Of a DNA stretch of 64,000 nt, positions 18,055-29,261 are shown piece by piece. Both the position numbers and the translations under genes were made by a program. The notes beneath the pieces were generated by a model, which worked only from the letters and a program-made list of their open reading frames with translations, was not told the DNA's origin and did no database searches. The stretch's first letter is position 1. Every line of letters begins with the position of its first letter. The DNA comes from Capsulimonadaceae bacterium (lineage in GTDB: Bacteria > Armatimonadota > Armatimonadia > Armatimonadales > Capsulimonadaceae): the NCBI GenBank assembly GCA_965215505.1, contig OZ244065.1, positions 4,320,001 to 4,384,000 of the forward strand, given 5' to 3'.

Positions 18055-18382
18055 GCCCCCATTGTACCGCACTTGGCGGCCGAGCGCAAGCGGAGGCGGC
18101 TGTGGGTCAGGGCGACCGCATACCGACGTTGTTTCCGTGCCATGACCCGCCGATGCCAGGAATGGCACGGCTATCCCTGCTGAGTGCCGCAGATTTGAGT
18201 GCCGCGAAGCGGTACTTCCTGGCGTCCTCGCCGCGTAGCCGTGCGTTTCAACGCACGGTCGGGGTTGGATGCGATTGCCCTGGCAAGTTTGTCTCGCCTG
18301 CCTGAAGTTTGTCCCGCCTGCCTGCCGGGTAGAGTCAAGCACAAACCGTTTCGCAGTCGCTCTTCAAAGGAGAAATCTCACC

Positions 18383-19225
18383 ATGGCACATCTGTATGCT
18401 TCATTCGCGGACGCCTCGCTGGCGGAAAAGGCGGCAGGCGCCCTGCTCGATCATGGGGTCCGCCAGGAAGACCTCAGCCTGGTCGCGAACGACCAGTATG
18501 GCCAGACGCGCGAGGCTTATACCACCCACGGCGTGAACCCCCAGTACGGTACGGCAGCCGCCGAGGCGGGCGTCGGGGGCATCGGCGATCGACTGGCGCA
18601 GACCGGCGACCGGCTCGCCGGGTCGGTCACGGGCGCGTTCGGCGCGGAAGGCGCGGCGGCCGGTTACGAGACGGCGGCGGCGGAGCGCGCGGGCAACGTG
18701 GGCGTCGGGACGGTCGGGACCATCGGTAACGCGGGCGTCTACAGCACCGGCACCCCGACGACGGCCGTTGCCGGGGACCTCAACCCGCTGGACCACGGCG
18801 GCCCGGACTCGGCCATGAGCCAGGGCGATGCTGCTACGGCGGCCAAGCACGGCATCAGCACGACGACTCCCGAGGACGCGGGCGAAGGCGCGGTCAAAGG
18901 GACGGGCATCGGCCTTGGGGTCGGAATCCTGGCCAGCCTGGCGGCCCTGACTGTGCCCGGCATCGGCCTGGTCCTTGGCGGCGGCGCTCTCGCCGCTGCC
19001 CTGGGCGCGACGGCCCTGACGGCGGGCGCGGGGGCCATCGCGGGTGGCGCGACCGGCTACCTCAAGGACCAGGGCGTCCCGCACGAGGCGGCCGAGCGCT
19101 ACCACGGCACGGTGGCTGGCGGCGGTGCGGTTCTCTCGGTCAACGTCCCCTCGGGCGACGTTGACCAGGCGACGGCCGAGGGCGTCCTGTCCAAGTACGG
19201 CGCGGCGGACGTGAACGCCTACTGA
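18383..19225 (+). CDS. general stress protein-like (YflT-type) Gly/Ala-rich membrane protein
   Basis: LYASFADASLAEKAAGALLDHG..DLSLV; LAALTVPGIGLVLGGG..GVPHEAAERY; AAGGAG RBS. Confidence 0.75.
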   Translation: MAHLYASFADASLAEKAAGALLDHGVRQEDLSLVANDQYGQTREAYTTHGVNPQYGTAAAEAGVGGIGDRLAQTGDRLAGSVTGAFGAEGAAAGYETAAAERAGNVGVGTVGTIGNAGVYSTGTPTTAVAGDLNPLDHGGPDSAMSQGDAATAAKHGISTTTPEDAGEGAVKGTGIGLGVGILASLAALTVPGIGLVLGGGALAAALGATALTAGAGAIAGGATGYLKDQGVPHEAAERYHGTVAGGGAVLSVNVPSGDVDQATAEGVLSKYGAADVNAY

Positions 19226-19264
19226 TCCGAAGGCGGCCAACCGAAAATCCTTCCGAAAGACTCC

Positions 19265-19293
19265 TTGACAAGCGGGGAGAGACGTGTTAGAAT
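19265..19293 (+). promoter_or_regulatory. consensus sigma70 promoter of the pil operon
   Basis: TTGACA-17nt-TAGAAT. Confidence 0.8.
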
Positions 19294-19432
19294 AGGGGGC
19301 GTGGAGGAATCCACGTCCTCTTTTTTCAGTCCGCGCACCCAGGGACCAGCACTTTCCCAACGCGCCCCACGCGACATAAACGAATTTTATGATGAAAACG
19401 AGCGCAAGACCAAAGCGAGATCGAGGTAGCTT

Positions 19433-20986
19433 ATGCCCGCCGGGCCACTGATCGGAATTGATATCGGGTCGCAGCAGATCAAGATCGCCGAGTTGCGCCC
19501 CGGCAAGACCGGGCTGACCGTCACCGCCCTCGGCCTCGGGCCGACTCCGGCCGGCGTCGTCCAGAACAGCATCATCACCGACCCCGCCGCCATGGGGGCC
19601 GCCATCAAGAGCCTCATGCGCGAGAGCGGCATCACCATCAAGCGCGCCGTCGGCTGCATCACCGGCCAGAACGCCGTCGTCATCCGCATCATCGAAGTCC
19701 CGCGTATGACCGACGCCGAGCTGAAAGAAACCATGAAGTGGGAGGTCGAGCGGCACGTCCCGTTCGCGCCCTCCGAGACCGTCCTGGACTACCAGCCGCT
19801 CGTCCCGCGCACGGCTGAGGCCGCCAGTGGCCCCAACATGGAGGTGCTGCTCGCCGTCGCACAGCAGGACGCCGTTTCCAACTACATTGACACCCTGTTC
19901 GCGGCGGGCCTCGACCCCGTCGCCATTGACATCGAGCCGCTGGCGATCTCGCGGGCCATCCTGGACCTCCAGAACGGCGTCCCCGTCGCCCGGCCCCAGG
20001 TGCCGTTCGGTGAGCCGGCCTTCGCCGACGGCCCCGAAGAGACGGTCGCCATCGTCAACATCGGTGCGGCCAACACCGACATCGCCATCTTCCAGGGCGG
20101 CCAGCTCACCTTCCCCCGCTCCCTGCCCCTCGCCGGGGACAGCCTGACGCGCGCCATCGCCGAGGCGATGCAGTACACCATGGAACAGGCCGAGCGCGTC
20201 AAGCGCGACTACGCCGTCGTCCAGCTCGACCGCATGGCCGTTTACACCGGCACCGCCTACGAGGAGGGCTACGAGACGCCGCAGTTCCAGGATGAGGACA
20301 ACTTCAATCTCGGCGACGACAACCCGTTCGACCTCGGCGGGCAGAGCGCCGAATTCGGCAACGCCTTCGGCACCCCCTTCGGCGGAGCCTCCGATGCGCC
20401 CCTCGGCGGCACCGCCTTCGGCGGCGGTCCTGCCTTCGACGACCAGGAGCGGACTCAGCCCATCGAGCGGCGCACGCTCAATCTCGCCCGGCCCGCGACC
20501 TCCGACGCGCCCCCCGCCTTCATGCCGCCCACCGACGATGCCGGGTTTGGGATGGCGGGTGCGGGCGGCGGCCCGGACGAGTCCAAGCTGCGTGACGACA
20601 TCTTCGAAGCCATCGCGCCCGTCCTGGGCGAGCTGGCCTCCGAGATCCGGCGCTCCTTCGACTACTACCGCAGCCGGGGCGCGCAGGTGTCCATTGACCG
20701 TGTGCTGCTGACCGGCGGCAGTGCTGGCCTGGCGAACCTCGCCGCCTTCCTCCAGAACGAGCTGCAAGCGCCGGTCGCCGTCGCCAGCGCGCTCACCGCC
20801 CTCCCGGTCACGTCCAAGCACTTCGACCCGTCCTACCTGCCGACCATCGGACCCGCCTTCACCATCGCCGTCGGCCTGGCCGCGCGGGACGTCGTCTTCG
20901 GCGCGAACCCGATGCCCAAGAAGCCCAAGCCGGTCAAGGCGGCCAAAGTGGCTGCCGGATCGGTCACGGCCCCCCCGGCTTCCTAA
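19433..20986 (+). CDS. pilM: type IV pilus assembly protein PilM
   Basis: IGIDIGSQQIKIAEL, WEVERHVPF..LDYQ, VNIGA..T, EIRRSFDYY, LTGGSA, IAVGLAAR; contains an acidic insertion. Confidence 0.93.
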   Translation: MPAGPLIGIDIGSQQIKIAELRPGKTGLTVTALGLGPTPAGVVQNSIITDPAAMGAAIKSLMRESGITIKRAVGCITGQNAVVIRIIEVPRMTDAELKETMKWEVERHVPFAPSETVLDYQPLVPRTAEAASGPNMEVLLAVAQQDAVSNYIDTLFAAGLDPVAIDIEPLAISRAILDLQNGVPVARPQVPFGEPAFADGPEETVAIVNIGAANTDIAIFQGGQLTFPRSLPLAGDSLTRAIAEAMQYTMEQAERVKRDYAVVQLDRMAVYTGTAYEEGYETPQFQDEDNFNLGDDNPFDLGGQSAEFGNAFGTPFGGASDAPLGGTAFGGGPAFDDQERTQPIERRTLNLARPATSDAPPAFMPPTDDAGFGMAGAGGGPDESKLRDDIFEAIAPVLGELASEIRRSFDYYRSRGAQVSIDRVLLTGGSAGLANLAAFLQNELQAPVAVASALTALPVTSKHFDPSYLPTIGPAFTIAVGLAARDVVFGANPMPKKPKPVKAAKVAAGSVTAPPAS

Positions 20987-21049
20987 AGGGCCGTCCCGAA
21001 ACCGACCCGTCCGAGAGACACCCGCCCGAGAGACACCCGAGAGATCACA

Positions 21050-22204
21050 ATGCTCCGAATCAACCTGCTGCCCCCCTATGTGACGCAGAGGCGTCTTACC
21101 AAGCGCCTCATACCGGTGTTCGCCCTGCTGCTGCTGGCGTGCATCGCTCTGCCCCTCTTCCTGTATGCCAACATGAAGGCGCACCTGAACGACATAACGC
21201 AGCAGGCGGAGGCGGACGAGACGGCCAAGGCCGCCAATGACGCCCTGGATGCCCAAGCCGCCAGCACGACGGCGAAAGTGCAGCCCATCCTGGACAAAGT
21301 GAACTTCGTTGACGGGGTCCACAAGTACAACCGTGACCAGGTCACCACGCTCGTCGCCGTCGCGAACCAAAGCCCCAAGAAGAGCTTCATCTACAGCGGC
21401 ATGGCCCCCGGCGCGGGCTACTCGACCATGACCATCAACGCCTACTCGCCCAGCGTCGAGGAAGCCGGCCGCTACCTCGAGGCGATGTACCAGCAGCCCG
21501 CCTTCACCTCGGTCGCCGTGGACAAGATCCCCGGCTACCCCGACAATGTCCAGCACCGGTGGTATCTCGGCCCGATCAAGCCTCAGTACATGGTGTTCGC
21601 CGACGGCGCTTCGGCGTCCGGCGGCGGTGCCGCCGCCGGCGGCTATCCCGGTGGCGGCGGCGGCGCTGCCACCGCCACGGCGGGCGGCTTCAATGCAGCC
21701 AGCCTCGCTCTGAACGGACCCAACAATATCCCGCCCGGCGTCGGCCCGCCCCCGCCTGAGCTGATCGGCGGCCTCGCCACGGGCGGCGGTGCCGCAAGCG
21801 GCGGCTATCCCGGCAGCGGCGGTGGCGGCGGTTACCCCGGCGGTGGGGGCGGAGCGCAGGCCGGTGGCGGCGGCTACAGCCCGAACTTCCTGCGAATCGC
21901 CCTGGCCGGCGTCAGCCCCTTCGCCACCCCTGACGTGATCGCGCGCATTCTGAGGAACAAGATGCGTCAGGTCCACATGGTGACCATCCCCAAGGGCTTC
22001 AACGTCACCGTGACGGCGGGCATCAACAAGCCTTACGCCCCGCTGACCGCACCGACGCCCCCCGGCGGCGGACCGGCGGCGGGCGGTGCGCCGGGCGGCT
22101 TCGGCGGCGGTGCAGGCGCTTACCCCGGCGGCGGCGGTGCGCCCGGCGGCTACCCCGGTGGGGGTGCCCCCGGCGGCTATCCCGGAGGCGCGGCGTCAGG
22201 CTGA
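21050..22204 (+). CDS. pilN: PilN-like alignment subunit with GGYPGG tracts
   Basis: N-terminal RINLLP motif plus TM plus coiled coil, directly after pilM. Confidence 0.85.
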   Translation: MLRINLLPPYVTQRRLTKRLIPVFALLLLACIALPLFLYANMKAHLNDITQQAEADETAKAANDALDAQAASTTAKVQPILDKVNFVDGVHKYNRDQVTTLVAVANQSPKKSFIYSGMAPGAGYSTMTINAYSPSVEEAGRYLEAMYQQPAFTSVAVDKIPGYPDNVQHRWYLGPIKPQYMVFADGASASGGGAAAGGYPGGGGGAATATAGGFNAASLALNGPNNIPPGVGPPPPELIGGLATGGGAASGGYPGSGGGGGYPGGGGGAQAGGGGYSPNFLRIALAGVSPFATPDVIARILRNKMRQVHMVTIPKGFNVTVTAGINKPYAPLTAPTPPGGGPAAGGAPGGFGGGAGAYPGGGGAPGGYPGGGAPGGYPGGAASG

Positions 22205-22220
22205 CGCTCAAGGAGACCCA

Positions 22221-23054
22221 ATGAAAACAGCGCGCCTCAGTCCCGTCGTCGTCGCCGCCGTCGGCACTGTACTATCCCTCCTGGCGATCGCCCTGATCTT
22301 CTTCCTGATGATCAAGCCGACGCAGGACGACACCGTGACCCAGCAGGCACGTCTTGACGCCGCCGCCCCCGGCACCGACCCGGAAGATCGGGAAGCAGGG
22401 CTTGCCCGGAACAAGAAGACGGCCCAGGCCAAACTCGCCCAGGCCAAGGTCAATGTGCAGAAAACGCAGATGCAGTGGGCACAGGTCGAAGCCGCAATCA
22501 TGCCTCCGTTCGACGTGAGCAACCGCCGCAAAGCGTTCCGGCAGCTCACCTATGAGCTGACGCACAACCTCGCGCCCGATCTACAGAAGCAGCTCACGGC
22601 CGGGGGCGTCACCTCGTCCACGAGGTTCGCACTGCCGCCGCCGCCCACCAGTCCGAACGACCCGATGATCCGGCCCGGCGTGATCGAGATCCCGCTCGGC
22701 ACGGTCACCGTCAACGGCGACTTCCGGCACATCCTGGCGAACTTCAACGACTGGCAGTATTTCAACCGCCTGGTCAAAGTAGACGGCCTGACCTTGACGG
22801 GCAACAGCCCGTACATGCAGGGGAGCTACACCGCGACGCTGTACATCTTCCCACAGGGTGACACCAATCCCGAGCCGCCCCTCGCCAAAGCGGGCGGGGC
22901 CGGCGGAGCCGGCGCACCCGGTGGCGGCGGCAGCTATCCCGGCGGCGGCGGCGGCGGCAGCTATCCCGGCGGCGGAGGCCCCCCCCCCGGTGCTGGAGGC
23001 CCTGGCGGCTACCCCGGCGGCGGTGGCCCCGGAGCCTACCCCGGCGGCCACTGA
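22221..23054 (+). CDS. pilO: PilO-like subunit with C-terminal YPGG tract
   Basis: TM plus coiled coil; IEIPLGTVTVNGDFRHILANF..FNRLVKVDGLTL PilO/GspM-like; AAGGAG RBS. Confidence 0.8.
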   Translation: MKTARLSPVVVAAVGTVLSLLAIALIFFLMIKPTQDDTVTQQARLDAAAPGTDPEDREAGLARNKKTAQAKLAQAKVNVQKTQMQWAQVEAAIMPPFDVSNRRKAFRQLTYELTHNLAPDLQKQLTAGGVTSSTRFALPPPPTSPNDPMIRPGVIEIPLGTVTVNGDFRHILANFNDWQYFNRLVKVDGLTLTGNSPYMQGSYTATLYIFPQGDTNPEPPLAKAGGAGGAGAPGGGGSYPGGGGGGSYPGGGGPPPGAGGPGGYPGGGGPGAYPGGH

Positions 23055-23174
23055 GAAGAATGGAGTTCGGCGCGTTAAGTCTTACGCTAAAGTTTAACGC
23101 GCCTGCATTGAAGGCTTTCCCGTTGGGAACACTCAGAACGGGTATGACCAACGGAAAGCGAGGGAATTGTCTGC

Positions 23175-24191
23175 ATGGACTGGTTCAAAGATAAGAAAAA
23201 CCTGCCGATCGTGGTGGCTCTGGCCGTCGTCGTGTTCCTGGGGGCGGGCGGCCTGATCGCCATGGAACTCGGCCTGTTCAACGGCGGCGCGGCGACGCCC
23301 ACGGCCTCCGCCCCGCCCAGCGGCGCGGGCTATCCGGGTGGTCCTGCCGCCGCCCCCGGTCCTGCCGCCTCTCTCGGTGCGGGTGGCTACCCAGGTGCGC
23401 GCCCGGCGGGCCGTCCCACCCGTGGCGCGGCAGCCGCCGCCGCAAAGGCGTCCCGTCCGGCCACCCCCGGCGCGGTGGTCACCGCCGTGAAGGGGCCTGT
23501 CAACCCGATGACCAGCGCGGACCCGTTCGCCCTCCCCGGCCCGCACAAGGCCGTCGCTTCGGCTGGTGGCCCGAACGTCGCCGGCATGCGGCCCCCCCTG
23601 CGGGACACCCTGCCGCCCCTCAACCTGTTCACGCTGCGCCCGCCGACCCCGCAGGTTGCGAGCAGCCTGACCCTCCCCAATGGGGGGGACGAGACGCTGG
23701 CCGGGACCCGCGTTTCCGGCATCGTGACCGCCGCCGACGGCATCTTCGCCGTACTTGACGTCAATGGAAGCTCACAGACCGTCAAGCCGGGTGACTCTCT
23801 GCCCGGCGGCAGCAAAGTCGCCTCGATTCAGTCCACCGGCGTTACCCTGCACACGCCCGAGGGGAACACGATTACCGTGCCCCTGTCTAACGGTCCGCCC
23901 CAGCAGAACCCGCAGCCCGGTTACGGCGGCGGCTTCGGGGGCGGCGGCTATGGCGGTGGATATCCCGGTGCCGGCGGCTATGGTGGCGGGTATCCGGGTG
24001 CCGGCGGCTTCGGCGGTGGTGGCGGCTACCCCGGTGGTGGCGGCTTCGGCGGCGGCGGGTATCCGGGTGCCGGCGGCTTCGGCGGCGGCGGTGGCTTCGG
24101 CGGCGGTGGCGGCTACCCCGGTGGTGGCGGCTTCGGCGGCGGTGGCGGCGGTTACCCCGGCGGCGGTGGGGGAGCGGGTGCGCCCGAGTAG
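23175..24191 (+). CDS. PilP/GspC-like membrane-anchored subunit with long Gly-rich tail
   Basis: N-terminal TM, DPF motif, RVSGIV..FAVLDVNGSSQTVKPGDSLPGGSKVASIQSTGVTL (HR/PilP-like beta domain). Confidence 0.7.
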   Translation: MDWFKDKKNLPIVVALAVVVFLGAGGLIAMELGLFNGGAATPTASAPPSGAGYPGGPAAAPGPAASLGAGGYPGARPAGRPTRGAAAAAAKASRPATPGAVVTAVKGPVNPMTSADPFALPGPHKAVASAGGPNVAGMRPPLRDTLPPLNLFTLRPPTPQVASSLTLPNGGDETLAGTRVSGIVTAADGIFAVLDVNGSSQTVKPGDSLPGGSKVASIQSTGVTLHTPEGNTITVPLSNGPPQQNPQPGYGGGFGGGGYGGGYPGAGGYGGGYPGAGGFGGGGGYPGGGGFGGGGYPGAGGFGGGGGFGGGGGYPGGGGFGGGGGGYPGGGGGAGAPE

Positions 24192-24204
24192 AGAGAGGAA
24201 CACG

Positions 24205-24957
24205 ATGAACAGGTCTATTTTCTCTCTCCTCGTTCCCGTCCTTCTGGCTGGGGGCGGCCTGGCGGCACGGGCACAGACCGGGGCAGATTCCAAGCCGGTC
24301 ACGCTCAACGTCTCGCAGGTCCCCATACAGACGGTCCTGAAGACGCTTTTCAACGGCGCTGGCGTCCGCAGCTTCGTGATAGACGCGGACGTCCCGCGCA
24401 CGGCACTCGTCGGCTCGATCAGCCTGAGCGGCGTTCCGTTCTCGGTCGCGCTCAAGCAGGTCCTGGGGGCGGTCAGCCCGCCCTTGGTCGCCGAACTCCA
24501 GGACGGCATTTACCACGTCCGAACTAGTGCGTCCGCGCCGCCGGACTTTGGGCCGCAGGCTGGTTTTCCCCCGGCCGATGCCGGACAGAACAACATCTAC
24601 AAGATTCGCATCAGGCACTATGATGCGGGCATGATTGCGGACGCCCTGACCCGCCGCGGAGGCATCATCCAGCTGCCGCCGAACTTCGTCATTCCGTCGA
24701 GCGCGAGCGTGGCGGGTGGGCCGACCGGCCCGAACATAACGACGGTGGGCGCGGCGGCCGGCCAGCCCCCGGCGGCTCCAAACGGCGGCGGGCTTCAGAA
24801 CGGCACGGCGACCGGCGCGAACGTCCTGCCGCCCGGCGTCAAGCGCATCTTCATCCTCGCGAGTGACAACTCTCTGGTGGTCGAGGCCACCGCCCAGGGC
24901 TACGAAAACCTGACCGACGAGCGCCTGCTCTCCGGCGGGTACACGCCAGTCTATTAA
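24205..24957 (+). CDS. secretin N-domain paralog without beta-barrel (STN/N0-like plus N3-like)
   Basis: Signal peptide; KPVTLNVSQVPIQTVLKTLF; LPPGVKRIFILASDNSLVVEATAQGYENL aligns with PilQ LPDGVTRIFALQSNNSLLVQATVDGYNTV. Confidence 0.75.
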   Translation: MNRSIFSLLVPVLLAGGGLAARAQTGADSKPVTLNVSQVPIQTVLKTLFNGAGVRSFVIDADVPRTALVGSISLSGVPFSVALKQVLGAVSPPLVAELQDGIYHVRTSASAPPDFGPQAGFPPADAGQNNIYKIRIRHYDAGMIADALTRRGGIIQLPPNFVIPSSASVAGGPTGPNITTVGAAAGQPPAAPNGGGLQNGTATGANVLPPGVKRIFILASDNSLVVEATAQGYENLTDERLLSGGYTPVY

Positions 24958-25000
24958 AGGCTCTCTTCGACGGCTTTATCGAAAGAAAAAGGAAAAACCC

Positions 25001-25816
25001 ATGAAAATCCGATACACGCGACGTCATGCGGCCCTCGCCCTTGGTGCCCTGGCCCTGCTCGGCGGCTCGGTCGTGGCCACCCCCGCACGGGCGCAGGACG
25101 CCAGCGCGGCGTCCGACAAGCCCATCACGCTGAACCTCCAGAACGTCCCCATCCAGACCGCCCTGAAGCTGCTGTTCAACGCTGCGGGCATCCACAACTA
25201 CACCATCGCTTCGGACGTACAGGGGACCGCCAACATTAACAGCGCCAATGTTCCCTTTACGATCGCCCTGACTAACCTGCTGAACTCGGTCGGCGCGGCC
25301 TTCACCGTCGAGAACGGCAGCTACAACGTCGCCATCAAGCGGCCCACGCCGGCACCCCCCGTGGTCGTCACCCCGCAGCCGAACGGGAACACGATCGTGG
25401 GCGGCAGCCAGGACTCGACGGCCAGCACGGCGGATCAGCCCAAGCGCTTCTACCCGATTCCGGTCAACAAGTACGACGCCTACTACCTTGCCCTCCTGCT
25501 CGGCTCGCAGGGCCTCGTCCGCGTTGACGTCAACGGCATCCTGCCCTCCCAGTTCAGCCAGGCCACCGGGCAGGGCCAGGGCGGTCAGGGCGGCCCCGCC
25601 GGCGGCATCACCTCGGTCGGTGGCCAGGGCGGTCGCGGCGGCGGCTTCGGCGGCGGTGGCGGCTACGGCGGTGGCGGCGGCGGCTTCGGCAGCGGCGGCG
25701 GTGCCCGCGGCAGCGTCGGCGGCGGCGGCGGCGGCTTCGGCGGCTTTGCCATCATCAACCCCGCCGGTTCGCAGAACACAAGCCCGCAGGGCACGCCCCC
25801 CCAGGGCACGAACTAA
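25001..25816 (+). CDS. second STN/N0-like secretin N-domain paralog with Gly-rich tail
   Basis: Signal peptide; KPITLNLQNVPIQTALKLLF is paralogous to the preceding gene; FYPIPVNKYDAYYLALLL resembles the N3 start. Confidence 0.72.
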   Translation: MKIRYTRRHAALALGALALLGGSVVATPARAQDASAASDKPITLNLQNVPIQTALKLLFNAAGIHNYTIASDVQGTANINSANVPFTIALTNLLNSVGAAFTVENGSYNVAIKRPTPAPPVVVTPQPNGNTIVGGSQDSTASTADQPKRFYPIPVNKYDAYYLALLLGSQGLVRVDVNGILPSQFSQATGQGQGGQGGPAGGITSVGGQGGRGGGFGGGGGYGGGGGGFGSGGGARGSVGGGGGGFGGFAIINPAGSQNTSPQGTPPQGTN

Positions 25817-26006
25817 TCGGACCCCGGTCCCCCCACCCGTCTTGGCGGGGGGACCCTACCAATCATTTAATCAGGCCCGCGTTGCGCGGCGACGACGAAG
25901 CGCTCCATTCTGCACTCATCTCCCTGTCTGACCCCCCACTCAAGTCGGGGCAACCGACTTCTCGCGACTTCGCAACGCTTCCATTTTCCGTTCAGGAGGA
26001 CATCTC

Positions 26007-27941
26007 ATGGGTTTATATCGAAGACGATCGGGCTTAACCGCCGCGTGCGGCCTGCTGGCTCTGGCGGGGCTGGCGTCCGCCGCCGCCCCGGCCCGGAGCG
26101 CCGAGGACGCCCCCCCCACGGCGAACGGCCGTGGGATCAGCATGGACGTGGCCGGTGCCGACATGCACACAGTCGTCCACATGCTGGAGCAGCAGGCCCA
26201 TGTGGATGCCCTCGTCCATGATGGCGACAAGCCGTTCAAGCCCATCAATCTCCATCTGGATGAGGCGTCCCTGCCGAAAGCGCTGAGGACCATCGCGGCC
26301 AGTGCGGGCGCGAAAGTCAGCAAGAATGAGGACGGGGTCTACGTCTTCGAGCCTCTCACCGCCGACAGTCCGGCCGCCCCGGCAAGCCCTGCACCCGCCG
26401 TCCAGGCCCCCGCCGCGCCGCAGCAACCCGCCGACAACCGCCCCGAGGCGCGCTACCCGTCTGGGTCGCTGCACTGGCAGTCCATCGTCCTCCAGCATGC
26501 CGTCCCGAATGACATCCTGAGGATCATGCACTGGGACCAGGACCTCGTCGAACTCGACCCCTTCAAGCCCGTCGAGGCCCCCCAGCAGCGCCCCAACGTG
26601 TCCTCATTCGGCGCGAACACGATTCTCCCGTCCAGCCTCGCCGGTCTCGGCGGCAACGGCTTCCCGAACAACAACTACAATAACGGCGGCTACCAGAACG
26701 GTGGCTATAACAACGGCGGCTACCAGAATGGCGGCAACCCGTCCGTGCCGCTCGGCACCGGCAATGGTGGTCCCGCCGGCGCGAACTACGCGAACTCCGC
26801 CCACCGCAGCGCTGAACCCGGCTCCCCCGGCCAGGCCAACCAGTTCCCCGGCGGCGGCTTCGGCGGCGGCTTCGGCGGCGGCCAGTTCGGGGGTGGCGGC
26901 GGCCAGTTCGGCGGCGGCGGCCAGTTCGGGGGTGGCGGCGGCCAGTTCGGCGGCGGCGGTCAGTTCGGCGGCGGCGGTCAGTTCGGGGGTGGCGGCGGCC
27001 AGTTCGGCGGCGGCCAGTTCGGCGGCCAGGGTGGGCCGGGCGGGGCGGGCGGACGGGCCCAGCTTCCCGACGGTGTGACGCGCATCTTCGCCCTGCAAAG
27101 CAACAACTCCCTGCTGGTCCAGGCGACCGTGGATGGATACAACACGGTCAAAAACCTGGTCCGCATCCTCGACATCGCCCCGCGCCAGGTCCAGATCAAG
27201 GTCGAGTTCGTCACCGCCAGCGTCGTGGACGTGGATAACCTCGGCGTCAACTTCGACCTCGTGCCCTATCCGGGTCTGGAACTCGCCACGAACCAGGGCA
27301 GCAGCGCCATCAGCACGACGGCCGCGCCGACCTTCCTGCAATACGCCACCGGCAACATCGTCGCCCAGCTTTTCCAGACGCTCACCCGCACGCGCGGCAA
27401 GGTGGTCCAGGCGCCGATCATCACGACGACGAACAACGTGGCGGCCAGCATCAACGTGTTCACCCAGATCCCGTTCTTCACCTCCTCCAGCGTGGTCACG
27501 GGCGGTCTGAACAACAACACGGTTAACAACACGCAGGCCAACTTCATCACCCTCAACACGGGCCTGACGATTGCGCCGCGCATCAACAGCGACGACTCGG
27601 TCACGATGAACCTCTCGCCGACGATCACTGACGTCACCGGCCAGCCCGCCGTCGGCGGCATCCCGCCGACCGTCACCCAGAGCATCACCACCCTCCGCAC
27701 CGTCCGCAGCGGCGACACCATGGTCCTCGGCGGCCTGGTCCGCAAGCAGGAAACGACCTCGACCCAGCGCATCCCGATCCTCGCCGACATCCCGGTCTTG
27801 GGCGGCATCTTCCGCACCCGCAACAAGCAGATCAACGACACCGAGCTGCTGATCTTCGTCACGCCGACCATCATCGGCGACAGCAACGACAGCGCGACCG
27901 CCAATGCCAACGGCGGCCAGAGCGTTACCGTCACGCCGTAA
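26007..27941 (+). CDS. pilQ: outer-membrane secretin (PilQ/GspD family)
   Basis: LDIAPRQVQIKVEFV, APIITTTNN..A.I, GLTIAPRIN, VRSGDTMVLGGL, IPILADIPVLGGIFR..ELLIFVTPTII. Confidence 0.93.
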   Translation: MGLYRRRSGLTAACGLLALAGLASAAAPARSAEDAPPTANGRGISMDVAGADMHTVVHMLEQQAHVDALVHDGDKPFKPINLHLDEASLPKALRTIAASAGAKVSKNEDGVYVFEPLTADSPAAPASPAPAVQAPAAPQQPADNRPEARYPSGSLHWQSIVLQHAVPNDILRIMHWDQDLVELDPFKPVEAPQQRPNVSSFGANTILPSSLAGLGGNGFPNNNYNNGGYQNGGYNNGGYQNGGNPSVPLGTGNGGPAGANYANSAHRSAEPGSPGQANQFPGGGFGGGFGGGQFGGGGGQFGGGGQFGGGGGQFGGGGQFGGGGQFGGGGGQFGGGQFGGQGGPGGAGGRAQLPDGVTRIFALQSNNSLLVQATVDGYNTVKNLVRILDIAPRQVQIKVEFVTASVVDVDNLGVNFDLVPYPGLELATNQGSSAISTTAAPTFLQYATGNIVAQLFQTLTRTRGKVVQAPIITTTNNVAASINVFTQIPFFTSSSVVTGGLNNNTVNNTQANFITLNTGLTIAPRINSDDSVTMNLSPTITDVTGQPAVGGIPPTVTQSITTLRTVRSGDTMVLGGLVRKQETTSTQRIPILADIPVLGGIFRTRNKQINDTELLIFVTPTIIGDSNDSATANANGGQSVTVTP

Positions 27942-27991: not shown

Positions 27992-28073
27992 CTGTCCCTA
28001 GGCCGCATCGGGTATAATCACCCCCAGAGTCTCTCATCATCGTTTGGTCCAGTCCTTAGTCCAGGAGTCCACC

Positions 28074-29261
28074 GTGTTCCGATTTCTTACCGCCGGCGAG
28101 TCCCACGGCCCCGCCCTCACCGCCGTCATCGAGGGCGTCCCCGCCGGGCTGCCGGTCCTCGCCGGGCCGATCAACGCCCAGCTCAAGCGCCGCCAGGGCG
28201 GCTACGGGCGCGGCGCGCGCCAGAAGATCGAGTCGGACACAGTCGAGATCCTGTCCGGCGTCCGCTTCGGGCTGGCCCTCGGCAGTCCCCTCACCCTCGT
28301 CGTCCGCAACCGAGACTGGGCCAACTGGACCGTAAAGATGTCCGCCGAACCCCTCCCCGAAGGCCAGGCCCCGCCCCCCATCACCGTCCCGCGCCCCGGC
28401 CACGCCGACTACACCGGCATGATGAAGTATGGCCATGACGACCTGCGGAACACCCTGGAGCGCTCCTCCGCCCGCAACACCGCCACCCTCGTCGCCGTCG
28501 GCGCGGTCGCCCGCGCCCTGCTGGCCGAGTTCGGCGTCTCGGTCGCCTCCCATGTCGTCAACATCGGCGGCGTCCGGGTCAACGCCGACCACATTGATCT
28601 GCGCCAGGTCGCCGCGCTGGCAGAAGACAGCCCCGTCCGTGTCGCCGACCCCGAGGCCGAGGCGCGCATCATCGCCGCCATTGATGAGGCCAAGTACCGG
28701 GGCGACACCCTGGGCGGCACCTTCGAGGTCGTCACGCTGGGCCTCCCCGTCGGGCTAGGCTCCTACTCGCAGTGGGACACGCGCATCGACGGCAAGCTGG
28801 CCCAGGCGCTCATGGCGATCCAGGCCATCAAGGGCGTCGAGATCGGCATCGGCTTCGGGGCCGCCGACGTCCCTGGCTCCCAGGTCCATGATCCCTTCTT
28901 CTATGACGACGCTGAGGGCGGCTCGGACGCCCGCTTCCGGCGCGGCTCCAACAACGCCGGCGGGACGGAGGGCGGTATCACCAACGGCGAACCACTCGTC
29001 ATCCGGGCCGTGATGAAGCCCATCGCCACCCTGATGAAGCAGCTCCCCTCGGTCAACCTCGAAACCAAAGAGGGCGTCCCCGCCTTCGCCGAGCGGTCCG
29101 ACGTCTGCGCCGTCCCCGCCGCCGCGGTCGTCGGCGAGGCGATGGTCGCCCTCGTGCTTGCCCAGGAGATGTGCCTCAAATTCGGCGGCGACAGCCTCGC
29201 CGAGATGCGCGCCAACTACGACGCCTACCAGCACACCGTTTCAGGGCGCATGAGCAAGTAG
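28074..29261 (+). CDS. aroC: chorismate synthase
   Basis: FLTAGESHG, RRQGGYGRG, PRPGHAD, ERSSAR, GDTLGG, NNAGGTEGGITNG, ERSDVC; GTG start after AGGAG. Confidence 0.98.
   Translation: MFRFLTAGESHGPALTAVIEGVPAGLPVLAGPINAQLKRRQGGYGRGARQKIESDTVEILSGVRFGLALGSPLTLVVRNRDWANWTVKMSAEPLPEGQAPPPITVPRPGHADYTGMMKYGHDDLRNTLERSSARNTATLVAVGAVARALLAEFGVSVASHVVNIGGVRVNADHIDLRQVAALAEDSPVRVADPEAEARIIAAIDEAKYRGDTLGGTFEVVTLGLPVGLGSYSQWDTRIDGKLAQALMAIQAIKGVEIGIGFGAADVPGSQVHDPFFYDDAEGGSDARFRRGSNNAGGTEGGITNGEPLVIRAVMKPIATLMKQLPSVNLETKEGVPAFAERSDVCAVPAAAVVGEAMVALVLAQEMCLKFGGDSLAEMRANYDAYQHTVSGRMSK

Follow-up and report, generated by a model that had tools for sequence, protein, structure and literature searches.

The closest described counterparts of the system reported here are the type IVa pilus machines of Pseudomonas aeruginosa and Myxococcus xanthus, encoded by pilMNOPQ (PDB entries 3jc8, 2rjz, 5uvr and 2ivw), and the machine of Thermus thermophilus, encoded by pilMNOWQ. 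The available part of a report on Thermus describes PilW, specified between pilO and pilQ, as a membrane-anchored, Gly/Pro-rich protein with a GspC-HR-like C-terminal domain (PMC13039148). The same text proposes PilW as a flexible connector of platform and secretin, its flexibility deriving from the Gly/Pro content, in a periplasm of ~70 nm (PMC13039148). Here we analyse an operon with the type IVa gene order and PilM fold family that lies in a 64,000-nucleotide stretch, hereafter the window, from the genome of a Capsulimonadaceae bacterium (Armatimonadota; GenBank assembly GCA_965215505.1, contig OZ244065.1, positions 4,320,001 to 4,384,000 of the forward strand). The pilus machine itself is of a known type, here in a variant with Gly-rich modules on its subunits. 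Such low-complexity modules occur on five proteins, a departure of the Armatimonadota machine from the type IVa models. The positions of the tracts are retained in 40 or more related operons, with GC contents of 0.47-0.71, while the repeat unit turns over. We propose, with a probability of roughly 0.4, that the tracts may link the platform with the secretin, as a flexible collar or tether of polymer with weak self-cohesion.

We regard it as very probable that this Armatimonadota locus encodes a type IVa pilus machine, with the gene and tract identities and the conservation described below. All of its genes lie on the plus strand. The product of pilM (19433..20986; 517 aa) matches Pfam PilM_2 at 1.3e-50 and TIGR01175 at 6e-63 (212.8 bits, cut-off 133; residues 6-487 over profile positions 5-348), and PilM was present in 41 of 41 relatives. 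The next gene, pilN (21050..22204; 384 aa), encodes an MLRINLLP motif, a transmembrane (TM) helix, a coiled coil and a ferredoxin-like core with a loop insert of ~190 aa; residues L2, R3, I4, L6, L7 and P8 showed no variation across 21 sequences. A profile built from 21 PilN orthologues matched Myxococcus PilN (PDB 3jc8) with an E value of 6.3e-8. In the AlphaFold model of PilN, a helix at residues 7-107 is followed by a beta/alpha core; the best Foldseek match of the model was 3jc8_Na (probability 0.97, E 2.2e-2), with the periplasmic domains of GspL/GspM coming next. For PilO (22221..23054; 277 aa), the PDB profile match by sequence was weak (E 0.29), and Foldseek paired the AlphaFold model with 3jc8_Oa (E 3.1e-4) and with Pseudomonas PilO structures 5uvr and 2rjz (probability 1.0). 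Pfam and NCBIfam scans returned no match for PilN or PilO; the identity of both was settled by PDB profiles and folds. The Pfam family for PilO, PF04350, misses the window protein and matches a paralogous locus in the same genome.

Downstream of pilO lies a gene for a PilP/PilW-like connector (23175..24191; 338 aa), which matches TIGR03021 (pilP_fam) at 3.6e-7 over residues 176-225, slightly below threshold (31.2 bits against a cut-off of 34.65). Its top PDB profile match was PilP 2ivw, with a weak E of 0.54. The connector consists of an N-terminal TM helix, without a lipobox as read from the sequence, a Gly/Pro/Ala linker, a beta domain and a Gly/aromatic tail. Two genes for small exported STN/N0-like proteins follow, which we call protein A (24205..24957; 250 aa; Pfam STN 1.3e-3) and protein B (25001..25816; 271 aa; Pfam STN 4.8e-3 plus matches to PilQ/HofQ N-terminal families), all these matches being below cut-off. 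The secretin encoded by pilQ (26007..27941; 644 aa) matches Pfam Secretin at 2.8e-37 and, below cut-off, Secretin_N at 4.8e-5. The matches to PilM_2 and Secretin, the profile match of PilN to 3jc8 and the fold of PilO uphold the assignment to a type IV pilus machine that had been made in the initial annotation of this DNA, which was prepared from the sequence alone.

The likeness to type IVa machines includes the INLLP motif of PilN, the ferredoxin-like cores of PilN and PilO that follow a TM helix and a coiled coil, and the C-domain of the secretin. Among the departures from those models are the ~190-aa insert of PilN, the extra STN/N0 proteins encoded 5' of pilQ, and the TM helix of the connector, which stands where type IVa PilP has a lipoprotein signal. 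PilP of the type IVa machines uses a C-terminal beta (HR) domain to bind N0 of PilQ. The chains are also longer in Armatimonadota than in Myxococcus: 384 vs 225 aa for PilN and 277 vs 205 aa for PilO. These figures agree, as regards chain length only, with the earlier statement that PilN and PilO of model systems lack the tails described here.

The modules were first recognised by their YPG units, and a recount returned the 18 units originally given: 6 in PilN (at aa 199, 253, 262, 358, 368 and 377), 4 in PilO (aa 239, 248, 264 and 273) and 8 in the PilP-like connector (aa 53, 72, 263, 273, 285, 296, 314 and 327). Two details needed correction. The units are real, but the phrase "mostly GGYPGG" was loose, as the exact hexamer accounts for 8 of the 18 and the remainder read SYPGG, AYPGG or GYPGA; and in the connector, for which YPG had been described as a feature of the tail, 6 of the 8 units lie in the tail but two in the linker N-terminal to the folded domain. 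By composition, ~0.15 YPG per 1000 aa would be expected, compared with the 18 observed here in ~1000 aa. Genome-wide, 264 were expected and 230 seen in a heuristic proteome of 1.71 M residues, a set of GC3-filtered open reading frames (ORFs) that misses the PilP-like protein and other strong cases. The other motifs reported at the outset were likewise found: GG[FY]GG occurs 8 times in the connector and 3 times in protein B (the "25001 protein"), and twice in PilQ, which also contains QFGG eight times and GGY[QN] three times, corresponding to the QFGGG and NNGGYQ tracts.

PilN carries three tracts, all on the plus strand like those that follow. Tract 1 (21599..21697; aa 184-216) lies within the loop insert and comprises 32 aa in the window vs 50 and 54 in the nearest relatives; the predicted local distance difference test score (pLDDT) of the AlphaFold model is below 50 at residues 190-213. 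Tract 2 (21758..21898; aa 237-283) has 2 YPG units and pLDDT <50 at 242-274, and the Gly/Pro/Tyr C-tail (22049..22201; aa 334-384) has 3 units and pLDDT <50 at 341-384. The Gly/Pro/Tyr C-tail of PilO (22863..23051; aa 215-277) contains all 4 units and falls below 50 at 227-275. In the connector, a Gly/Pro/Ala linker preceding the beta domain (~23277-23504) holds 2 YPG units, and the C-tail (23889..24188; aa 239-338) is 63% Gly and 15% Tyr+Phe, with 6 YPG and 8 GG[FY]GG. Protein B ends in a Gly-rich Phe/Tyr tail (~25562-25777). PilQ has its tract inside the chain, as a linker from the N-terminal domains to N1 (26649..27041; aa ~215-345) that reads (NGGYQ)n and then NQFPGG(GFGG)n(GGGQF)n. The window tails contain 49-63% Gly, 6-15% Tyr+Phe and 0-3% charged residues.

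In the models of PilN and PilO, pLDDT <50 coincides with the tracts and the segments between them fold; by this measure the tracts are intrinsically disordered. Within the PilN insert (window 21540-22050, aa ~165-333), two conserved islands, ..LGPNG..N.PPGVGPPPPE.. and ..YS..FLR.A....SPFA.P.., fold at pLDDT 70-88. As had been proposed, sequences and AlphaFold helices put every tract C-terminal to a TM helix (PilN, PilO and the connector) or to a signal peptide (protein B and PilQ), a topology that would make all of them periplasmic. The tracts come in two flavours: those of PilN, PilO and the connector combine Gly/Pro with Tyr, Phe or Met, and those of the STN protein and PilQ are Pro-poor Gly sequences with Phe, Tyr, Met or Leu, near the consensus of abductin. 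Their DNA is composed of imperfect tandem repeats with periods of 9-69 and 66-100% matches (34 entries), located at 22129-22190 in pilN, 22900-23048 in pilO, 23924-24166 in the connector gene and 26675-27029 in pilQ. Low complexity extends beyond the periplasmic subunits, since the cytoplasmic PilM has an acidic, Phe/Gly/Asp-rich insert of ~135 aa (aa ~265-400, ~20225-20633; ..FNLGDDNPFDLGG..FGNAFGTPFGG..), which the initial annotation had left unlisted. This insert is seemingly conserved, because PilM orthologues in both families of the order match across nearly all 517 aa.

Three further public runs (X2, X6 and X7) supplied contigs that are near-identical to the window and differ from it mainly by in-frame indels in the tracts. 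These contigs break in the longest tracts, so that the comparison covers the remaining parts; of the 12 indels listed (19 more lie beyond them), 11 are located within tracts and sum to whole codons, and the twelfth is at the stop codon of the PilP-like gene. In other strains the PilN tail has in-frame indels at 22109-22144 and the PilO tail has indels and a 51-base skip, and in two of the other runs the PilP-like tail has an 18-base deletion at 24053. An assembly artefact was ruled out, as relatives that were assembled independently show the tracts as well. Runs of Gly codons driven by GC content were ruled out as the sole cause, given that genomes with a GC content of 0.47-0.52 retain the tails; a genome at GC 0.47 has (GGYGGY)n and GMMGMPGMMG tails, and the codons for Y, F and M are AT-rich.

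We compared operons from 22 genomes of the same taxonomic order. The three closest genomes have GGYPGG at every position, in differing numbers. Counted as PilN/PilO/PilP, the window has 6/4/8 YPG units, locus L051 has 8/4/14 and L052 has 9/4/13; L004, the third of these relatives, is cut within pilN. Farther out in the genus, the positions stay and the unit becomes GGFPGG, (GYPGQ)n, GFNGG/GFNPG, a Q/N-rich sequence with Tyr and Phe or, in two genomes, a Ser-rich one. In genus g1, the last 120 residues contain [YF]PG once or more in 11 of 14 cases for PilN, 11 of 14 for PilO and 5 of 14 for PilP. Members of the sister family are without the ~190-aa PilN insert and have tails of GGMGG/GMPPG (Met-type) or GGFPGG. 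YPG proper is limited to the sub-clade of the window and a small number of others; the remaining operons have F, M, L, W or N/Q as the sticker, or lack one. Thus, the expectation that orthologous operons would keep the tracts at varying length holds for close relatives, which retain them with varied unit numbers, but not for the YPG unit, which is replaced farther out. At the level of the phylum, the PilO profile matched 156 of 201 sampled genomes, and the order pilM-N-O-(connector)-(STN protein)-pilQ was found at 20 of 20 loci, which represent 20 family or genus labels and GC contents of 0.47-0.71.

Another module belongs to the STN protein encoded 5' of pilQ. Every complete orthologue seen has a Gly(Ser/Asn)-rich tail with evenly spaced F/Y/W/M/L, built from units such as (GGYGGF)n, (GGYGGY)n at GC 0.47, (GGM/GGMM)n, GSWGS.. 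or GGFGG/GGLGG. Statistics were taken on 42 tails from 43 loci, the remaining locus, cut by a contig end, showing none. The median tail is 73.5 aa long with 58% Gly and 16% F/Y/W/M/L/I/V (minimum 5.7%); Asp+Glu do not exceed 4% and Pro is near zero. The N-domain of the STN protein belongs to a very large family that has yet to be named: in a library holding 1.84 billion proteins, its profile retrieved 28,014 representatives at E <=1e-3. Many have 2-9 tandem copies of the domain and lengths to 1677 aa (P0042-P0188). We retrieved 32 library members; of the 18 with a single domain, 16 are full-tailed and 2 end as if cut. Close homologues of the STN protein bear the sole label "hypothetical protein". 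In 34 operons, PilQ has a linker of 25 or more Gly-rich residues that opens with a conserved NQF and continues as (GGF/GGL/GGQF/GFNGG)n up to N1.

The ends of the STN tails raise a separate explanation, namely that the Gly tail of this protein, and perhaps others, is a leash for a terminal docking motif of Arg plus an aromatic residue, whose partner might be the secretin, peptidoglycan, an outer-membrane protein or a PDZ-like pocket. Indeed, 22 of the 42 tails end in F/Y/W and 13 more in R, which brings those with a final aromatic residue or Arg to 35, and in 28 of 42 an R within the last five residues is combined with a near-terminal aromatic. Such C-termini include GGFGR, GGRGF, GYRGW, YSRRY, NSNRW and GNRF at loci L031-L149, and RGF, RGY, GYR and GWR in remote library members. 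Against a tethered anchor, protein B of the window ends ..PPQGTN and its closest relative ..KSQTSK, neither being of the Arg/aromatic kind, and the tails of PilN, PilO and PilP do not end alike. We consider this explanation improbable.

To place the tracts in their genomic background, we scanned all six frames of the 6.18 Mb genome for 25-residue windows that hold 12 or more Gly and 3 or more Tyr/Phe/Trp. This strict scan was substituted for an earlier one, a 45% Gly window on the heuristic proteome, which was too permissive in returning 148 proteins. It yielded 35 ORFs, of which 4 belong to the 7-gene pilus operon and rank 3, 4, 7 and 10; among the non-operon ORFs scanned, 10 of 20 had a Pfam match. 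The cytoplasmic cases comprise two DnaJ G/F regions, RRM glycine-rich proteins and the tail of ribosomal protein S3. These likewise have GGFGG, GGYGG or RGG tracts, and Gly/aromatic tracts as such are therefore no privilege of the pilus operon; unlike the pilus tracts, they belong to well-known families and are cytoplasmic and Arg-rich. The rarity of such tracts in unrelated proteins, on which the initial annotation had made its case depend, was borne out in part: they are strongly concentrated in the operon (4 of 35 ORFs), yet similar ones are found elsewhere, in other exported proteins. When Met-type tracts elsewhere in Met-type genomes were sought, a DNA pattern search and searches with tail proteins in G068 and G138 matched the pilus operon alone, the method being insensitive enough to miss the sister tails as well.

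How, then, might tracts with these properties work? Through the loop insert and C-tail of PilN, the linker between N0 and N1 of PilQ, and the C-tails that end PilO, the connector and the STN protein, each protomer would supply ~450-550 low-complexity residues. Type IVa pilus machines have 12-15-fold symmetry. Multiplied accordingly, the modules could form a polymer collar, which by a rough estimate would pack several thousand residues into a few thousand cubic nanometres. Such a collar would connect the secretin with the platform in the inner membrane, allow for variation in the width of the periplasm and carry the load of pilus extension and retraction. The repeat units of the modules turn over by slippage, and gene conversion homogenises the tails within one operon. 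The fixed positions, the persistent hydrophobics and few acidics of the STN tails and PilQ linkers, and the concentration in one operon, from which a paralogous machine of the same genome differs, argue that the tracts are maintained, beyond mere tolerance.

The main rival to a cohesive collar is that the tracts are passive entropic spacers, which provide reach and flexibility without specific cohesion and whose composition drifts. PilW of Thermus has been read in this way in the available text, with reference to Gly/Pro flexibility and a periplasm of ~70 nm (PMC13039148). Both the pre-domain linker of the connector and the N0-N1 linker of PilQ join two folded parts, as a spacer should, several families have sticker-free Pro/Ala/Gly tails, and units turn over fast, with lengths differing between strains. 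In contrast, 4 of the 8 tracts are free C-terminal tails that join nothing, and 42 of 42 STN tails keep hydrophobics and nearly exclude acidics, neither of which a pure spacer needs. Moreover, the paralogous machine of the same genome, a second PilM/PilO-like/PilP-like/secretin/ATPase locus (G000:C1:6087000-6096500, minus strand), has Ala/Pro-rich tracts, unlike the Gly/aromatic ones. We judge the passive-spacer explanation to be rather unlikely.

Within a genome, the compositions of the tails match. Between PilO and PilP tails (n=30), Spearman coefficients are 0.78 for Y, 0.77 for M and 0.48 for F; the composition overlap of matched pairs is 0.677 vs 0.610+-0.010 after shuffling, a value reached in 0 of 2000 shuffles, and again in 0 of 2000 when one genome per family label is taken (n=12). 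PilN and PilO tails (n=21) give 0.93 for M and 0.74 for Y, with an overlap reached in 0 of 2000 shuffles. Hence the shared code postulated in the initial annotation is visible in the co-varying Y and M of the PilN, PilO and PilP tails but is partly a product of gene conversion. Judged from their DNA, these three tails undergo concerted evolution by gene conversion: the best-matching tail is the partner from the same genome in 7 of 20 genomes, and orthologous tails differ between sister species.

Several results weigh against the collar, and we gather them here. With one genome per label the matching is weak for PilN-PilO (n=4, 81/2000) and PilN-PilP (n=3, 324/2000), kin being non-independent. 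PilN and PilO tails have ~60 identical bases in common at L041, 132/135 closely similar bases at L046, and ~215 bases with a near-identical start at L133, and the mean local DNA score between tails is 32.4 within genomes vs 16.2 between them (0/5000 shuffles). The shared code thus arises at least in part from gene conversion, and selection for binding need not be implied. The STN tail and the linker of PilQ co-vary modestly (F 0.47, Y 0.44, M 0.28). Some tails are also poor in stickers: PilO and PilP tails are Ser-rich at L035 and L038, and consist of Pro/Ala/Gly, without Tyr or Phe, at L135, L136, L138 and L144-L147, and the PilO tail is almost gone at L038 (14 aa), L132 (12 aa) and L137 (18 aa). 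In the window itself, PilO does not pass the strict Gly/aromatic genome scan. Finally, unrelated exported proteins of the same genome carry tracts in the style of GGFPGG, GGYPGG or GGFGG; these include PKD, DUF5666, BamB-like propeller, alpha-2-macroglobulin, DUF3500 and VIT-VWA proteins and several family-less ones, so that a lineage habit of exported disordered regions is possible.

Taken to its end, this last point leads to the explanation that the tracts are functionless expansions of Gly-codon repeats, tolerated lineage-wide in exported proteins, and that their peak in the pilus operon is an accident of gene conversion. The tracts being encoded by tandem repeats, the conversion between tails, the similar tracts in at least 10 unrelated exported proteins and the loss of the literal repeat unit outside the sub-clade are all in keeping with neutral expansion. 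It is hard to reconcile with positions kept in 40+ operons over GC 0.47-0.71, an STN tail in every complete orthologue seen, a recurrent Arg/aromatic C-terminus on 35 of 42 of these tails, a PilQ linker with a conserved NQF start, and the strong concentration of tracts in one operon. We therefore hold neutral expansion to be highly doubtful.

The collar reading also has a stronger version, in which the several thousand sticker-spacer residues would make up a phylum-conserved polymer phase, a cohesive, rubber-like gel round the path of the pilus. We regard this as distinctly unlikely. If true, it would be a bacterial counterpart of FG-nucleoporins or abductin that self-assembles both membrane modules and seals or cushions the conduit. 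Such a gel would store or damp the force of retraction, and gene conversion would keep its tails mutually compatible.

Some features of the locus stand apart from these questions. Protein A has no Gly tail; its C-terminal stretch is PilQ-N1-like (..LPPGVKRIFILASDNSLVVEA..), as if the N-terminus of PilQ had recently been duplicated. Copies A and B are both present in L051 and L052, and most other operons have a single copy; a BLAST table suggested a second STN copy in a few further same-genus operons. Downstream of pilQ lies aroC, encoding chorismate synthase (28044..29261, plus strand), which keeps this position in operons of the same family (orthologues 80-87% identical) and at 7 of 20 phylum-level loci, recalling the pilQ-aroK-aroB linkage of Proteobacteria. 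Upstream of pilM, an ORF at 18269-19225 (318 aa) is Gly/Ala-rich with a hydrophobic stretch and gave zero matches in Pfam and NCBIfam. Antisense or shifted ORFs over the operon, of up to 1191 aa as at 18401-21976 (minus strand), are Arg/Ala/Gly-rich and most likely by-products of the 68% GC content.

One side observation concerns the end of the PilQ linker. In an alpha-2-macroglobulin-like protein of the same genome (L064, G000:C1:3705908-3710572), a GGFPGG/GGFGG tract is followed by ..LPNGVARIFALQNNNSLSV..., a stretch that resembles the linker end and the first N1 strand of PilQ (..LPDGVTRIFALQSNNSLLV..), with blastn identities of 67-73% over 73-135 bases. The likeness may reflect the transfer of a pilQ fragment or convergence.

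Type IV pilus machines rank with the best-studied nanomachines that span the cell envelope. Their models have been built on Proteobacteria, Myxococcus and Thermus, and here the Gly-rich modules are phylum-wide on five periplasmic subunits. If the modules are cohesive, they would constitute a rare machine-bound polymer phase of the periplasm and a mechanical element that couples the platform with the secretin when under load. Should they prove to be spacers, the operon still offers a clear case of concerted evolution of low-complexity tails in neighbouring genes, and a conserved, unnamed accessory protein, STN/N0 with a Gly/hydrophobic tail, that is annotated as hypothetical. The natural Y-, F- and M-type variants of the tails are suited to swap experiments.

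Outside pili, three protein systems invite comparison. The N-terminal domain of galectin-3, with its PGxY motifs, undergoes phase separation through aromatic residues, according to the available part of the study (PMC7060198). Its PGxY/PGxW repeats, as far as that text describes them, are like the ..PGGYPGG../..PGAYPGG.. sequences of PilN, PilO and the connector in being disordered, extracytoplasmic Pro/Gly repeats with spaced Tyr; galectin-3 is, on the same partial account, a non-homologous animal lectin with a net negative charge, whereas the bacterial tails are almost uncharged. Abductin of the bivalve hinge is presented, in the portion of its description that is available, as a random-coil rubber of consensus GGFGGMGGGX and low Pro content (PMC13052691). 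The STN tails fit the abductin type so described, with GGFGG, GGMGG and GGMMGG units, a Gly median of 58% and Pro near 0; the Pro-rich tails of PilN, PilO and PilP fall outside it. Abductin is a cross-linked bulk material, as opposed to the tails of 50-120 aa found here on subunits of one machine. The cohesive domains of FG-nucleoporins are uncharged and disordered, with spaced Phe, and are densely grafted round a conduit. The (GGGQF)n linker of PilQ, of which each secretin would hold 12-15 copies, can be likened to them, the differences being that its spacers are almost pure Gly and far shorter and that the conduit carries a pilus fibre.

In the literature covered by our search, from which most subscription journals were excluded, we found no account of Gly/aromatic tails on PilN, PilO, PilP or PilQ or of a secretin-associated periplasmic condensate. 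The nearest precedent there is a comment, in the available part of the Thermus report, that PilW is rich in Gly and Pro (PMC13039148). The connector, a possible counterpart of PilW, resembles its described layout in gene position, TM helix and Gly/Pro linker. Beyond what the available description of PilW contains, the Armatimonadota connector bears a 100-aa Gly/aromatic tail after its beta domain, and modules are present on four further subunits of the machine.

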